Origin: Alphaproteobacteria bacterium
Lineage (GTDB): Bacteria > Pseudomonadota > Alphaproteobacteria > UBA9655
Assembly (NCBI GenBank): GCA_013287665.1
Contig: JABDDK010000001.1
Location: 64,822 to 88,821, forward strand
Direction: 5' to 3'
DNA: 24,000 bases
The notes beneath the pieces were generated by a model that had not been told where the DNA came from, made no database searches, and was given only the letters and a program-made list of their open reading frames with translations. Of the stretch, positions 500-14,401 are shown piece by piece. A program made the position numbers and the translations under genes. Each line of letters opens with the position of its first letter. The stretch's first letter is position 1.

Positions 500-724
500 C
501 AGGGCCACCTCATGAAAATTTGTGAGGTGCCTTCACCTCTCCCCTTGTGGGAGAGGTCGCCCTTTAGGGCGGGTGAGGGGAGGCCGTATGCAGTGTTCTT
601 TGACATTTCTTTAAAGTCATATATCCCCCTCACCCGCCGCTGCGCGTCGACCTCTCCCACGCAGGGGAGAGGTGAAGGACTTCGTCCTTAAGAAAGAATA
701 TACGATTTTCATGAGGTGACCCCG
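500..724. mobile_element. Composite non-autonomous element: outer 20-bp TIRs enclosing an inverted pair of REP-like arms (531-580, 625-678) and a 44-bp remnant of the DUF559 gene 5' end (581-624)
   Basis: TIRs are CAGGGCCACCTCATGAAAAT (500-519) and ATTTTCATGAGGTGACCCCG (705-724), 18/20 complementary. They are flanked by the direct repeat GGTCTTAGCC at 490-499 and 725-734. The arms match copies at 972, 10410, 14056 and 20711. Confidence 0.7.
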
Positions 725-971: not shown

Positions 972-1166
972 CTTCACCTCGCCCCTTGTGGGAGAGGTCG
1001 CTCGAAGAGCGGGTGAGGGGGCCGTAATTTCAGTAAAACTCTCTGTTCATTAGTGGATATAGATAATCTTAATCAATAATGTCGGTCTGTACTTGTGTTG
1101 ACCACCCCCTCACCCGCCGCTTCGCGTCGACCTCTCCCACGAAGGGGAGAGGTGATGGTGCCTCAC
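972..1166. repeat. Inverted pair of REP-like arms (972-1020 and 1105-1166) with an 84-bp spacer
   Basis: Left arm is CTTCACCTCGCCCCTTGTGGGAGAGGTCGCTCGAAGAGCGGGTGAGGGG. Right arm is its inverted counterpart, ending GGTGATGGTGCCTCAC. The element fills the gap between the convergent stops of rpmG (967-969) and pdhC (1163-1165). Confidence 0.75.
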
Positions 1167-4482: not shown

Positions 4483-5109
4483 TTAAAGTAGGCTTAACAA
4501 TATATAAATTGAAAATCCAAATAACATTATTCCTGAAGAACGATTGATCCAAAGCAACTGAGTCTCAGAAAGTTTGTGGTGCATGAGGTGCACAGCGGTA
4601 CTGAGAGAGATCCACCATGTGGTTGCTCCAACGAAAACACCTGCGACAAGAATAGACGCTTGAGATAGAGAGTCATGAACAGGTTTTATGCCCATAGCTG
4701 CAAAGGCCGCTGCAAAAGCGAGAAGGGTGATTGGGTTCGAAAGAGTCAGAAAAAAGGCAGAGGTAAAGGCTTGAATGAGTGACCCTTCACTTGACGAGTC
4801 TTGGCTCAACTCTCGAGGATGGGATCTAAATATTGAGACACCAATCCACGCGATAAGAAATCCACCAAATAAGCGTATATAAAAGTCATAATGATGAATA
4901 AAATCAGAAATACTGGCCAGTCCAAATCCCGCAACCGCCCCATAGAACGTATCGGCAAGACCCGCTCCAAGGCCTGTAAATAGGCCTAAAGCGTACCGGC
5001 CTGAGAGAGTCCGTCGAATACAGAGTATACCAATGGGCCCAACAGGGGCTGCGATCGCAAAACCAATGAGAGTGCCTTTGATGAACAAGATGAGAAGCGT
5101 TGTGGCCAT
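4483..5109 (-). CDS. LysE/RhtB-family amino-acid exporter
   Basis: 208 aa with about six hydrophobic helices. The N-terminal motif GFAIAAPVGPIGILCI is typical of the LysE translocator family. Confidence 0.8.
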   Translation of the reverse strand: MATTLLILFIKGTLIGFAIAAPVGPIGILCIRRTLSGRYALGLFTGLGAGLADTFYGAVAGFGLASISDFIHHYDFYIRLFGGFLIAWIGVSIFRSHPRELSQDSSSEGSLIQAFTSAFFLTLSNPITLLAFAAAFAAMGIKPVHDSLSQASILVAGVFVGATTWWISLSTAVHLMHHKLSETQLLWINRSSGIMLFGFSIYILLSLL

Positions 5110-5190
5110 TCCTGAACTTCTGTCTAATTACGAATGAGTCATTTTTAACCTGGAAGAGAGGATATGTCTAGGGGAGTGGTTTTACACCAC

Positions 5191-5545
5191 GGTAAACGCA
5201 TCTAAATAGTAAAGAAACCCTATCCCCACTGGCGTCGTCCTCGCGAACGAGCCTGTAAAGAAAATAGAACGAACCCACTCACCGGTGTCCTTGGACAATA
5301 AAACCTTTGTTTTCCGAAGGAAAACTCTAGGTTTTATTGATCCGAGGATCTATTAGTGGGTAGCATGGATCCTCGGGCGAAGGAATGCTAGAGTTTTCCT
5401 TCGGAAAACAAAGCATTCCTTCCCCAAGGATGACACGTCTGGGGAGAGAATAGGTGAGTAGGTAATCATTTTCTTTACAGCCTCGTTCGCGAGGACGACG
5501 CCAGTGGGGACGTTAGGTTTTCCCTAAACTGTAGATGCGTTTACC
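5191..5545. repeat. 355-bp near-perfect palindromic (MITE-like) element
   Basis: Left arm 5191-5265 and right arm 5469-5545 are inverted copies. The termini GGTAAACGCATCTA and a 28-nt core CCCCACTGGCGTCGTCCTCGCGAACGAG are identical. Inner inverted repeats (TTTGTTTTCCGAAGGAAAACTCTA / TAGAGTTTTCCTTCGGAAAACAAA) continue to a centre near 5368. Confidence 0.7.
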
Positions 5546-5564
5546 CTGGTTTTACCCTTCGCTT

Positions 5565-6479
5565 TTATTCTTCAAGCATGCGTAGTTGAATGGCGGACGT
5601 CTTGACAGATTTCTGCAGTTTTTCAAAGGCTCGAATCTCAATTTGACGCACACGTTCGCGGGAGATTCCCATCTTTTCGGATAGGGCTTCCAACGTAATC
5701 GGTGGCTCTTTAAGGCGTCTTTCTGTAATAATAAATTGTTCCCGCTCATTTAATGTTTTTAAGGCGGTGGTTAACAGAACATTCTTATGCTTGCTTTCAT
5801 CACGTTCAATGATATGCGTTTCATGGCTGGAATCTTCATCCACAAGCCAATCCTGCCATTCATCGAGACCTTCTTCTTTCAAGGGCACATTGAGGGATTG
5901 ATCTTGCCCGCTCAGCCGTTTGCTCATTTCAATAACTTCTTGCTCAGAAACCTTAAGTTCACCAGCAATATCTTTGATGGTTTGAGCTGAGATGACGGGC
6001 TCATCCAATTCTTGCATCTGGTTTTTAAGCCGTCTTAAATTGAAGAAAAGCTTCTTTTGAGCCGCAGTTGTGCCAATTTTAACAAGGGACCAGGAATGGA
6101 GAATATATTCTTGTATATTGGCCCGAATCCACCACATGGCATATGTCGAAAAACGAAACCCTTTGTCAGGATCAAACTTGCGGAGGGCTTGCATGAGGCC
6201 CACATTTCCTTCTGCGATAAGATCCACAATAGGTAACCCGTAGCCCCTATATCCACCCGCAATTTTAGCCACAAGACGAAGGTGTGAAGCGACAAGCTTT
6301 TCTGCTGCTTTTGGATCTTGTTGTTCTTGCCATCTTTTCGCGAGAATAAATTCTTCCTCTGACTCTAACATGGGGAATCGTTTGATCTCTGCCAAATAGC
6401 GTGTGAGACCATCCCCCATAGAGGGAAGGGCTGCGACCTCGGGGAGGACAGGGAGGTTAGTGTTTTGATCGTCCGACAC
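5565..6479 (-). CDS. rpoH: RNA polymerase sigma-32 (heat-shock sigma factor)
   Basis: Sigma-70 regions 2-4 plus the RpoH box (AAQKKLFFNLRRLK). GTG start. The gene sits 18 nt downstream of rluD, a synteny common in alphaproteobacteria. Confidence 0.9.
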   Translation of the reverse strand: MSDDQNTNLPVLPEVAALPSMGDGLTRYLAEIKRFPMLESEEEFILAKRWQEQQDPKAAEKLVASHLRLVAKIAGGYRGYGLPIVDLIAEGNVGLMQALRKFDPDKGFRFSTYAMWWIRANIQEYILHSWSLVKIGTTAAQKKLFFNLRRLKNQMQELDEPVISAQTIKDIAGELKVSEQEVIEMSKRLSGQDQSLNVPLKEEGLDEWQDWLVDEDSSHETHIIERDESKHKNVLLTTALKTLNEREQFIITERRLKEPPITLEALSEKMGISRERVRQIEIRAFEKLQKSVKTSAIQLRMLEE

Positions 6480-7472: not shown

Positions 7473-7630
7473 AGCATGTCCGTAAATAAATGTGTCTCAT
7501 TTATATTACAATTATAAAAAAATGCAATGGTTAAAATTTAGTAAATATTCAATGGTGTTATTAACTTGATGGTGTAAGTTGTTGAAATCAAACAAAAGAT
7601 CGTTATTGCAAGAATGAGTGCTTATTGTAT

Positions 7631-7663
7631 CTTTTCTTAAGGACGAAGTCCTTCACAAATTTA
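7631..7663. repeat. Solo fragment equal to the two inner flanks of the 500-724 element, joined without the REP pair
   Basis: 7634-7656 (TTCTTAAGGACGAAGTCCTTCAC) is the exact reverse complement of 672-694. The following CACAAATTT matches the reverse complement of 517-525. Confidence 0.5.
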
Positions 7664-8723: not shown

Positions 8724-9638
8724 ATGGATTGGGATAAGCTGCGGGTATTTTATAATGTTGCCGATTCGGGAAGTTTCACCCGCGCAGCTATGCGTCTTGA
8801 CATCACTCAATCAGCCATTAGCCGCCAAATTGGAAGCCTCGAAGAACGCATGGGCGTTCCTCTTTTTCACCGCCATGCGCGGGGTCTTCTTTTAACAGAA
8901 CAGGGGGAGCTTCTCTTCCGAACAGCCCGTGAAGTTTTCTCTGAGCTTGCCATGGTTCAAGCTAAAATTACGGAGAACATCGCTGTTTCCCCTTCCGCCT
9001 TAAAGATTGCAGCAACGGTTGGGTTTGGCACCACCTGGCTTTCGCCTCGTTTACATACATTTTTGGACCTTTATCCCAACCTTCGTGTCACCCTCCTCTT
9101 AAGCGATAACCCAATTGACTTAACGGTTCATGAGTCAGATGTCTCGATAACGTCTTCTGTGACAGAGGATGAAGACCTTATTTATAGAGAGCTGATGTGC
9201 CGAAAACTATTGATTTATTCAAGCCGGGATTACCTTCTTAAATACGGTGTTCCTTTGACACCTGAGGATTTGGATCACCACAGACTTGTTGTCTATAGTG
9301 AGATGGCAATGGTTCCTTCTGATAATGTGAACTGGATTTTAACGTGTGGAACGCCTCCCGGTATTAAGCGAGAGCCCTACCTTGAGATCAATAACTTAAC
9401 AGGGATTACAAAAGCTGTTGAGTATGGGGCAGGTATTGCTTGCCTTCCAGAATATGTAGCGAAAAAGTACAAAGGACTTGTGCAAATATTACCTGAGACG
9501 ATGAGTCCTATTGTTCGGTTTTACTTTGTTTACCCAAAGCAATTAAAGGATTCAACACGGATTACAAACTTGTGGACCTTCTTAAGAGAAGAAAGCCAGA
9601 AGGACGAAGAAGACATCAAACGAGGATCCAAACCATGA
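8724..9638 (+). CDS. LysR-family transcriptional regulator
   Basis: N-terminal HTH ([31 protein letters not shown]) followed by a LysR substrate-binding domain. Confidence 0.85.
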
Positions 9639-10408
9639 CCTATGAATTCATTCTTTTTGAGAAAATCCAGAAGGTGGGGGTGATCACACTCAATCGACCA
9701 CAAGCTCTGAATGCCTTGTGTGAGGGGTTGATTCGTGAATTAACAGCGGCTCTTGATGTCTGTGAGGCCGATCCTGATATTCATTGCATGGTGTTGACCG
9801 GCTCTGAGAAAGCCTTTGCGGCAGGGGCTGATATTAAAGAAATGCAATCAAAGACTTATAGGGAATCCTATATGGAAGATTTTATCTCGAAATGGGAGAG
9901 AATCGATCGTTGCAGGAAGCCCATCATTGCAGCTGTCTCTGGGTTTGCCTTGGGAGGTGGATGTGAGATGGCGATGATGTGTGACTTCATTATAGCCTCT
10001 GATACGGCTAAATTTGGCCAGCCAGAGGTGACAATTGGGACGATCCCGGGGTCAGGGGGCACCCAACGGTTAACCCGCGTTGTCGGCAAGTCTAAGGCCA
10101 TGGAGATGTGTTTAACGGGTCGTATGATGGATGCAGAGGAAGCAGAACAGGCGGGGCTCGTGAGTCGGGTGGTAGCTGTTGCTGAATTACGTGAGGAAGC
10201 CTTGAAGACTGCTCACAAGATTGCCTCATTCTCCCTACCGATCGTGATGATGATTAAAGAATCGATTGGAGCTGCCTTTGAGATGCCCTTGTCTGAGGGC
10301 GTGAAGTTTGAGCGGCGCTTGTTCTATTCGACCTTTGCCCTCGACGATCAAAAGGAAGGAATGGCCGCTTTTCTAGAAAAGCGCCCGCCCGTGTTTAAGG
10401 GGAAGTAA
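9635..10408 (+). CDS. Enoyl-CoA hydratase (crotonase family)
   Basis: Crotonase fold ([36 protein letters not shown]). The start was moved from the track's 9572 to ATG 9635 ([10 protein letters not shown]). The 21 upstream codons lie inside the LysR gene, and ATG 9635 overlaps the LysR stop as ATGA. Confidence 0.85.
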
Positions 10409-10409
10409 T

Positions 10410-10837
10410 CTTCACCTCTCCCCTGCGTGGGAGAGGTCGACCCGAAGGGTCGGGTGAGGGGCATTTAAAATCATCTCCAAAACTCCCTCAATATTACTAA
10501 GCACATCATTATTCCAAAAACGGATAACTTTAAATCCATTCATTTCAAGAATACGTGTCCGCTGATTATCATAGGCTTCTTGGTCAGCATGTTGTCCTCC
10601 ATCGAGTTCAATCACTAGTTTTTTCTTAAGGCAAACGAAATCAACAATGTAGTTTTGCAACATATGTTGACGCCTAAACTTCCAACCATAAAACCTCCGA
10701 TCTCTAAGATGATACCAAAGACGACTTTCGGCGTCAGTTTGATTTGTGCGTAGTGTTTTTTGAAATCTCTTTAGAGTCATATTTCCCCCTCACCCGACCC
10801 TGCGGGTCGACCTCTCCCACGCAGGGGAGAGGTGAAG
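10410..10837 (-). mobile_element. Full-length member of the REP-like family: DUF559 gene enclosed by two inverted about 52-nt arms (10410-10461, 10785-10837)
   Basis: Both arms are near-identical inverted copies (CTTCACCTCTCCCCTGCGTGGGAGAGGTCGACCC-GAA/GCA-GGGTCGGGTGAGGGG). The ORF starts 5 nt inside one arm and terminates inside the other. Confidence 0.6.
10412..10780 (-). CDS. DUF559 endonuclease-domain protein (Vsr-like nuclease fold)
   Basis: The sequence TDAESRLWYHLRDRRFYGWKFRRQH...IVDFVC...LVIELDGGQHA...RFWNNDVL is the DUF559 hallmark. The last 16 codons (NAPHPTLRVDLSHAGER) and the stop are encoded by the repeat arm. Confidence 0.8.
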   Translation of the reverse strand: MTLKRFQKTLRTNQTDAESRLWYHLRDRRFYGWKFRRQHMLQNYIVDFVCLKKKLVIELDGGQHADQEAYDNQRTRILEMNGFKVIRFWNNDVLSNIEGVLEMILNAPHPTLRVDLSHAGER

Positions 10838-10967
10838 AAATTCCATATGGGCAATTAAAAACCCGTCCTCAAATTGACAGAAATCAAAATTGAAATAACC
10901 TCATAAATGTAAAATCCCACCCGTGTGCCTGGATTTTACTCCCCACAATCACGAAAAGGATACCACC

Positions 10968-14051: not shown

Positions 14052-14055
14052 ACCA

Positions 14056-14401
14056 TCACCTCTCCCCGCGTGGGAGAGGTCGACGCGCAGCGGCGGGTCA
14101 CTGCCATTAAGTTAAGGAAAATTGTCTCGAGGTGGGTCGTCCCGGGAATGAGAATTTCTTGAGCAAAGCTCAAGATTTCTCATTGCCCGGGATCCAGGAG
14201 CAATACTATTGCGTAAGCAATACAACGCTCCTTTATAAAGAAAATCATTACATTCCTGCGGAATGAATTATTAGCCCTGGATCCCCGATCCGCGCTTCGC
14301 GCTCTCGAGGACGACCCTAGGGGTGGGCAGTTTGCTTAACTTAATGGCAGTGGCCCTGAAGGGCGACCTCTCCCACAAGGAGAGAGGTGAGGGTGCCTCA
14401 C
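14056..14401. repeat. REP-like arm pair (14056-14098 and 14353-14401) interrupted by a nested element
   Basis: The left arm TCACCTCTCCCCGCGTGGGAGAGGTCGACGCGCAGCGGCGGGT is truncated before GAGGGG. The right arm GCCCTGAAGGGCGACCTCTCCCACAAGGAGAGAGGTGAGGGTGCCTCAC lacks the CCCCTCACCC end. Confidence 0.65.
14099..14352. mobile_element. 254-bp MITE-like element nested inside the REP pair
   Basis: Perfect 18-bp TIRs: CACTGCCATTAAGTTAAG (14099-14116) and CTTAACTTAATGGCAGTG (14335-14352). Internal long hairpins are present. It shares a GGGTCGTCCTCG-type motif with the 5191-5545 palindrome. Confidence 0.6.

Follow-up and report, generated by a model that had tools for sequence, protein, structure and literature searches.

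Short palindromic repeats that probably descend by internal deletion from a palindrome-flanked DUF559 nuclease gene

Bacterial genomes are strewn with short palindromic repeats, most families of which have an obscure maker or mover; the REPs were explained by RAYT. The locus analysed here raises the question of whether another kind of hairpin repeat can be traced to a gene. It lies in a window of 24,000 nt (the whole stretch of DNA that was analysed) of ordinary chromosomal DNA from a low-GC alphaproteobacterium, among genes for an EipB-like protein, ribosomal protein L33, pyruvate-dehydrogenase E1 and E2, thioredoxin reductase, a LysR regulator, enoyl-CoA hydratase and alcohol dehydrogenase. 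The window holds several non-coding pairs of inverted, hairpin-forming arms, together with a small DUF559 gene set between two such arms (Table 1); the copy numbers of full-length and short forms given for this organism are those of the window. A preliminary description had claimed that the non-coding copies retain the start of the DUF559 gene, and are thus tied to it by descent and not just by adjacency. The answer reached below is solid on descent and architecture, and the mechanism is a proposed one.

Table 1. Arm-bearing elements and related sites in the 24,000-nt window
Feature	Coordinates	Strand	Details
Short non-coding copy 1	526..675	minus	150 nt; both arms and 5' gene remnant; ends set by the unfilled paralogous site
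Copy 1, 5' arm	625..675	minus	outer hairpin CCTCTCCC-N6-GGGAGAGG, inner hairpin, box GGGTGAGGGGG
Copy 1, DUF559 5'-end remnant	586..620	minus	start codon 618-620; 25/29, extended 28/35
Copy 1, junction filler GGCCT between remnant and 3' arm	581..585	minus	common to copy 2
Copy 1, 3' arm	526..580	minus	CCCCTCACCC box, GCCC/GGGC inner hairpin, outer hairpin, 7-nt outer extension AGGCACC
Third arm doublet (972-1166 copy)	974..1162	minus	85-nt spacer; takes up the interval that separates the genes for L33 and pyruvate-dehydrogenase E2
Unfilled paralogue of the copy 1 insertion site	7628..7662	minus	AAATTTGTGA and AGGACTTCGTCCTTAAGAAA continuous
Full-length unit	10409..10838	minus	5' arm 10786-10838; DUF559 ORF 10412-10780 (122 aa); 3' arm 10409-10461
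Arm pair with inner boxes and interior replaced by a different inverted-repeat element (14095-14356)	14052..14401		
Short non-coding copy 2	20709..20859	plus	deletion junction as in copy 1; start codon changed to ATA (20768-20770)
Copy 2, parts	remnant 20768-20800; arms 20713-20763 and 20809-20856	plus	
Solitary degenerate outer hairpin	23947..23985		TTCACCTCTTCC...GGGAGAGGTTGAAG

The start of the DUF559 gene in the short copies

Read directly on the minus strand, the spacer of copy 1 is GATAT-ATGACTTTAAAGAAATGTCAAAGAACACT-GCATACGGCCT and the start of the full-length DUF559 gene is GAAAT-ATGACTCTAAAGAGATTTCAAAAAACACT-ACGCAC. In the orientation of the gene, copy 1 consists of the 5' arm, ATAT, ATGACTTTAAAGAAATGTCAAAGAACACT, GCATACGGCCT and the 3' arm. 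As the preliminary description had it, the spacer agrees with the first 29 nt of the gene at 25 positions, and the agreement extends to 28 of 35. The position relative to the arm is also the same, with the ATG 4 nt past the inner box in copy 1 (where the box, GGGTGAGGGGG, is a Shine-Dalgarno-like site) as in the gene. The second copy, which had been reported to carry the same remnant with its ATG mutated to ATA, does so, with the same junction; it matches the gene start at 24 of 29 positions and is 94-96% identical to copy 1 over about 150 nt. Because the two copies share both the remnant and the junction at this level of identity, the deletion would have occurred once, and its product would then have been copied to a second locus. 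As single-stranded DNA, copy 1 folds into one long hairpin (-51 kcal/mol, z = -9.7).

Both stretches are AT-rich, giving a per-site match probability of 0.33, and an AT-rich spacer might resemble a gene start by chance. The 25/29 match in fixed register has, however, a composition-based binomial P of 4.5e-9, and none of 500,000 shuffles reached it (maximum 21). The second copy matches too, and in tblastn translations the remnants read MTLKKCQRTLHT (copy 1) and ITLKKCQRTLR (copy 2), with L3, L10 and R11 of the family motif kept; the remnant encodes residues 1-11 of helix 1. On these comparisons a chance match is so improbable that we regard it as excluded, and the shared 29-35 nt, in register, tie the repeats to the DUF559 gene by descent, as had been proposed.

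The deletion in copy 1 is in frame and leaves an 18-codon mini-ORF, MTLKKCQRTLHTASPHPP and a stop (586-620, downstream to 564). The Shine-Dalgarno-like box of the arm lies upstream of this mini-ORF, which terminates within the loop of the inner hairpin of the 3' arm; copy 2 has lost the start codon for it.

The other copies are less informative. The spacer of the 972-1166 copy had been likened to the 3' end of the gene; the count of 14/20 identities stands, but in a best-diagonal test it was equalled by 1845 of 20000 shuffles (p about 0.09) and is not above chance. Another internal match, between nt 3-35 of this spacer and nt 114-147 of the gene (25/33), is borderline (9/2000 against shuffles and about 1% against real-sequence decoys). 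Sequence comparison with the gene gave no convincing remnant in either the 972-1166 or the 14052-14401 copy. The element at 14095-14356, which has 26-nt ends (CACTGCCATTAAGTTAAG...) that are 92% complementary, sits in the interior of its arm pair, and both arms have lost their inner boxes to it.

A minimal nuclease gene that runs into its arms

The full-length unit is about 430 bp long, and its 53-nt arms are 98% complementary. Two stem-loops form in each arm. The order from the outside in is TCACC, outer hairpin (CCTCTCCC-N5-6-GGGAGAGG), inner hairpin and terminal box, GGGTGAGGGG; the conserved inner box reads GGGTGAGGGG / CCCCTCACCC. The box that precedes the ATG by 4 nt resembles a Shine-Dalgarno site, and at the other end the last 16 codons (APHPTLRVDLSHAGER) and the TGA stop lie inside the 3' arm. 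The gene takes its ribosome-binding site from the 5' arm and its disordered tail and stop codon from the 3' arm. A promoter scan upstream of the DUF559 gene found nothing, and no Rfam covariance model matched anywhere in the window at gathering score.

Arm sequences can be aligned between the short copies and the full-length unit, except in the inner hairpin. Among four units whose genes differ by dS 0.8-1.5, the outer hairpin and the box are near-identical, which argues that the arms are constrained as DNA. The inner hairpin behaves differently: among 91 arms, in which the stems were not fixed by the search pattern, there are 55 distinct stems, and pairing is kept (5.5 bp, vs 3.8 bp in shuffled sequence). 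This combination of boxes conserved in sequence and a hairpin conserved only in pairing is what we would expect of a structure-forming DNA end recognised by a protein.

The 122-codon ORF encodes a DUF559 protein (Pfam PF04480, E = 6e-44, 148.8 bits against a curated cut-off of 20.6). The Pfam search of this protein returned PF04480 and a sub-threshold PF18741 only, and no transposase family. An AlphaFold2 model is confident for residues 1-110, with residues 2-26 forming the first helix, and the arm-encoded tail is disordered (pLDDT below 50). The best structural matches were, in order, the uncharacterised DUF559 structure 3HRL (matched at E = 1.6e-29), the homing endonuclease I-Bth0305I (PDB 3R3P; Foldseek E = 1.6e-4, TM 0.59/0.72) and Vsr. 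E18 and H64 are invariant, and D47, E58 and D60 are present in at least 90% of sequences. We read the protein as a minimal Vsr-like PD-(D/E)XK nuclease with a 106-residue core between the arms. Low dN/dS values, 0.07-0.13 among the four units (synonymous divergence 0.8-1.5), place the gene under purifying selection. Its closest homologues are found in Caedimonadaceae and in unclassified alphaproteobacterial metagenome bins.

To our knowledge, Caulobacter VsrA is the only DUF559 protein with genetics behind it. It has been read as a mismatch-repair nickase encoded by a stand-alone repair gene, with no link to repeats or mobility described (PMC12907096). VsrA is like the present protein in belonging to Pfam DUF559 and in the exact spacing of its proposed catalytic residues E73, D102, D115 and H119 (PMC12907096), which corresponds to E18, D47, D60 and H64, predicted to be catalytic here. 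Unlike our protein, VsrA appears to be longer at the N-terminus, because these residues are numbered 55 higher (E73 vs E18).

Insertion of the short copies and the direction of descent

At 7628-7662 the two flanks of copy 1, AAATTTGTGA (left) and AGGACTTCGTCCTTAAGAAAGAATA (right), run on without a break, with 33/35 identities across the junction. Comparison with this unfilled site bears out the element that had been placed at 531-678 and corrects its boundaries, which are slightly wider (526-675). What the filled site has beyond the unfilled one is the element and nothing more: copy 1 shows no target-site duplication, and the sole ambiguity is 4 nt (GTGA) belonging to the arm. Because its flanking sequence is continuous at the paralogous site, copy 1 is read here as mobile DNA, a clean and precise 150-nt insertion. 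As is usual for MITEs, the short form is small, non-coding, multi-copy and demonstrably inserted, with further variants besides the two copies, and it has terminal inverted repeats in common with a longer coding partner. Both short copies adjoin an 11-nt motif, GTGA followed by NGGACTT; the window has three occurrences of the motif GTGANGGACTT, where 0.08 would be expected, one at the junction of each short copy and one at the unfilled site. This recurrence points to a preferred target.

The genes directly beside the full-length unit differ among close relatives (mrdA/rodA, a TacAT cassette and a cytochrome bc1 region). Since groESL and recR lie within a few kb of the unit in both L099 and L100, these two sites may not be independent. 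In L100 the last ~20 nt of the DUF559 gene, the 3' arm and ~45 nt of flank are duplicated 1.5 kb upstream (8895-8990 vs 10365-10460), and the duplicated segments bracket a TacA/TacT toxin-antitoxin pair together with the full-length unit.

In our window, copy 1 lies inside an outer inverted repeat (GGGCCACCTCATGAAAAT at 503-522, ATTTTCATGAGGTGACCCC at 703-722; 493-731 overall) bounded by a direct repeat, GGTCTTAGCC, at 493-502 and 722-731, which includes the stop codon of the EipB-like gene. The arrangement looks like nested elements. A similar motif, ATTTTCATGAGGT, stands beside the full-length unit in L099.

Which way the descent ran can be judged from the gene's 5' end. The preliminary description had allowed that this end might itself derive from a repeat insertion, and this was not borne out: the Pfam DUF559 match and the BLASTP alignment with Escherichia coli YcjD both begin at residue 3 (...ARDLRRNLT...), and a similar N-terminal motif is visible in Neisseria gonorrhoeae NGO0050 (...AKAMRQEMS...). 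The 5' end is the gene's own and not repeat-derived, because it is conserved in homologues with a different 5' hairpin (YcjD) or without arms (NGO0050). Derivatives of intermediate length, which had been named as something to look for, are represented by one related metagenomic contig, L117, in which nt 1-61 of the gene are joined to the ...VIRFWNNDVLSNLE region by an internal deletion of ~190 nt. It belongs to a decay series in relatives that came from a second metagenome scan; the first, with the remnant pattern as query, gave no match. The series comprises intact units (L099, L100, L106, L108, L149), a frameshifted one (L115), one in which the gene interior was swapped for unrelated DNA and the arms were kept (L123), and the partly deleted L117.

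The in-register match, the L117 intermediate and the family-wide N-terminus together make descent of both short copies, by loss of the interior of a DUF559-carrying unit, well supported by the sequence comparisons. As the best overall explanation, and with the mechanism that it implies, we consider it probable that the short copies are non-autonomous, internally deleted descendants of an arm-DUF559-arm unit like that at 10409-10838. The full-length copy in the window does not itself appear to be their direct parent, because its inner-hairpin sequence differs and the remnant differs from it at 4 of 29 positions. Against this explanation, most doublets elsewhere have spacers unrelated to the gene and often palindromic themselves. 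Spacers of the form TTCAG...CAGCACTGA in Devosia were considered as a clean parallel and set aside, their similarity being modest (p 0.0005 to 0.5 per copy) and the spacer ends palindromic; this parallel is at most suggestive.

The descent could also have run in the opposite direction, with the doublet first and a homing-type nuclease gene invading its spacer; the 29-35 nt would then be the original spacer and the short copies unfilled targets. The closest solved structure besides the DUF559 protein 3HRL is indeed a homing endonuclease, I-Bth0305I, gene-less doublets far outnumber gene-bearing units (74 vs ~8 among the matches listed), and the arms would supply homology for repair-mediated copying. 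However, the retained codons align with a conserved N-terminal helix, even in the armless NGO0050 and in YcjD with its different 5' hairpin; L117 is a genuine internal deletion of a full-length gene; the spacers of the other doublets are heterogeneous, with no single common target sequence; and the gene depends on the arms for both its start signal and its stop codon, which favours long co-evolution over recent invasion. We therefore think it very unlikely that the gene came second.

I-Bth0305I is encoded within a group I intron. A survey of the PD-(D/E)XK superfamily grouped it (3R3P) with the Vsr and DUF559 families (PMC3424549). It shares the catalytic fold of our protein and is itself a selfish nuclease whose gene spreads by host repair; unlike I-Bth0305I, which has an added DNA-binding region, the protein described here is a bare nuclease core inside a palindromic repeat. 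On the evidence on direction of descent given above, simple homing-type invasion of a pre-existing doublet would be disfavoured.

Spread of the layout and a possible role for the nuclease

In a genome-collection scan, a 29-base arm pattern matched at least 97 stretches, the matches listed coming from Devosia, Bradyrhizobium, Roseibium, other alpha-, beta- and gamma-proteobacteria, Legionellales, Planctomycetes, Myxococcota and Acidobacteria. Most of the matches listed are doublets with spacers of 11-98 nt (74 short vs ~8 full-length), and in the 8 DUF559-holding units among them, which come from distant lineages, the spacer is always 323-358 nt. The signature is also found in the proteins. Among homologues of at least 57% identity, 71 of 97 complete proteins have arm-encoded C-terminal tails, as do ~12 more in degenerate form (~85%); tails such as ...PHPPLRGDLSHKGRG and ...RPLPQGER are examples, and some proteins begin with a translated 5' arm (...SPLVGEV...). 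Among 123 diverse representatives, taken from the 25,106 clusters found at 50% identity, at least 62 have such tails by a strict pattern and more by eye. The same layout occurs in Devosia, on a Deinococcus plasmid (35-nt inverted flanks) and at E. coli ycjD, and a gene inside a palindrome appears, from these sequences, to be widespread across bacteria.

Two variants of the doublets were seen. In a Planctomycetales MAG (L036, 2850-5250) they form a head-to-tail array with a 161-nt period and at least 4-5 units; elsewhere they are dispersed singles. In other metagenomic bacteria (L113, L119, L122, L135, L136, L139, L141) the same boxes form just one symmetric palindrome, CCCCTCACCC-CCTCTCCCC-loop-GGGGAGAGG-GGGTGAGGGG, which amounts to a self-complementary arm. 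Br-REP1 and Br-REP2 of Bradyrhizobium were compared with the arms and rejected, since their sequences differ.

In E. coli K-12, ycjD (b1289; NC_000913.3 1351040-1351830; L153 340-900, L157) is preceded by a perfect 19-bp hairpin that ends GAGGTGA directly before the ATG, and the C-terminus of YcjD, LSPSPQPSP, is encoded with its stop codon by a CCCTCACCCC-AA-CCCTCTCCC-TGAAA-GGGCGAGGG hairpin. YcjD is like our unit in protein sequence (49% identity) and in having its tail and stop codon in a dispersed 3' repeat: the 186-nt 3' flank recurs within E. coli genomes (median 14 places per genome), and may belong to the Box C class of enterobacterial repeats. It is unlike our unit in its different, perfect 5' hairpin and in its fixed locus. 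A search for E. coli short copies carrying the ycjD 5' end found none; the 5' query lies at a median of 2 places, probably because a palindrome is matched once on each strand. Only ~62% of 5,426 complete E. coli genomes have the ycjD locus, and Nissle-type and O157-type strains lack it there. Strains lacking ycjD do not provide a clean unfilled site, since a different gene island occupies the locus; in Nissle, the sole strain inspected, a TetR/RND efflux island adjoins fabI.

These data bear on a further alternative, in which DUF559 is an ordinary host repair nuclease of the Vsr type, the arms are generic REP-like terminators or stabilisers, and recombination between repeats duplicated the 5' edge of the gene. 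In its favour, the VsrA protein of Caulobacter acts like a chromosomal nuclease for repair or damage, the ycjD gene has a single fixed position between fabI and sapF, and all elements in the window are intergenic, mostly just past stop codons, as REPs are. Repeat-mediated duplication does not, however, predict that copy 1 should be a precise 150-nt insertion at the same 11-nt motif that adjoins copy 2. The unit also lies between different neighbour genes in close relatives, and its tight architecture (interior 323-358 nt, ribosome-binding site and stop in opposite arms) recurs in alpha- and gamma-proteobacteria and in Deinococcus. We consider mere adjacency unlikely, and return to the short copies as deleted descendants of the unit.

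REPINs are REP doublets that accompany a REP-associated tyrosine transposase, RAYT. Our system is like REPIN-RAYT (PMC5581495) in that one small gene is bracketed by two inverted hairpin-forming repeats, in its many gene-less inverted doublets, intergenic and near gene 3' ends, in the lack of target duplication, and in a gene typically present at one or a few copies and under purifying selection. It differs in its enzyme, which is a PD-(D/E)XK DUF559 nuclease and not an IS200/IS605-like HUH/Y1 tyrosine transposase; in its arms of ~50 nt, with two hairpins and a conserved box, into which the ORF runs; and in its short copies, which here keep gene sequence, as REPINs are not known to do. With MITEs and their autonomous partners it shares common terminal inverted repeats, a lost interior, multiplication of the deleted form and an intermediate deletion (L117); unlike them, it has no target-site duplication, no recognised transposase in the partner and a unit of only ~430 bp. 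The system would thus work like REPIN-RAYT, or like a MITE with its parent, yet it falls outside both definitions because it has neither an HUH or recognised transposase nor a target duplication.

How might the unit move? DUF559 is not a known transposase, and we know of no experiment that ties any DUF559 protein to DNA mobility. We infer that the nuclease is the mover of the repeats, acting on the arms. It may nick or cut there, its substrate being either the conserved boxes or hairpins extruded from the arms. The unit would then be copied to new sites by the replication or repair machinery of the host, a homing-like or REPIN/RAYT-like route rather than classical cut-and-paste. A nuclease this small, ~106 residues, cannot join DNA strands or integrate DNA by itself. 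For the internal deletions, aborted copying or slippage from one arm to the other would be possible sources. One such event would have left only the first 33-35 nt of the gene, and the resulting 150-nt hairpin element would then have been copied to at least two loci, gene-less short copies with intact arms being served in trans. We put forward tentatively a broader proposal, that DUF559 proteins (>25,000 clusters at 50% identity, YcjD included) could be dedicated partners of pan-bacterial double-hairpin palindromic repeats, a PD-(D/E)XK counterpart of RAYT-REPIN, with the ~430-bp unit among the smallest self-propagating DNA elements, spawning repeats by internal deletion. The idea is directly testable in a model organism, E. 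coli K-12, whose ycjD shares this layout.

A second, very widespread class of hairpin repeats is in this way linked by shared descent to a small nuclease gene, and we found no description of DUF559 genes as residents of palindromic repeats in the searchable literature. If the link is functional, DUF559 and YcjD gain a role, and it would explain the odd proline- and glycine-rich tails of annotated DUF559 proteins as well as the DUF559 genes flagged as inversion targets in genome screens. In one such screen, predicted programmed-inversion targets were enriched 14-fold for "DUF559 domain-containing protein" and 10-fold for "endonuclease domain-containing protein", an enrichment not discussed there (PMC9881135); inverted arms that overlap the ORFs are its likely, and trivial, cause.

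Other repeats occur in the same window. The 430-aa ORF at 19263-20555 had no Pfam match, and on either side of it two very large minus-strand ORFs, 15254-19396 (1380 aa) and 20922-23843 (973 aa), contain extended tandem repeats that stay in frame (periods 96 nt, and 192 and 45 nt). Between the ORFs 4483-5109 and 5565-6479, three concentric inverted repeats (37-, 43- and 66-nt arms) occupy 5186-5550, which we take to be another composite palindromic element, unrelated in sequence to the arms.
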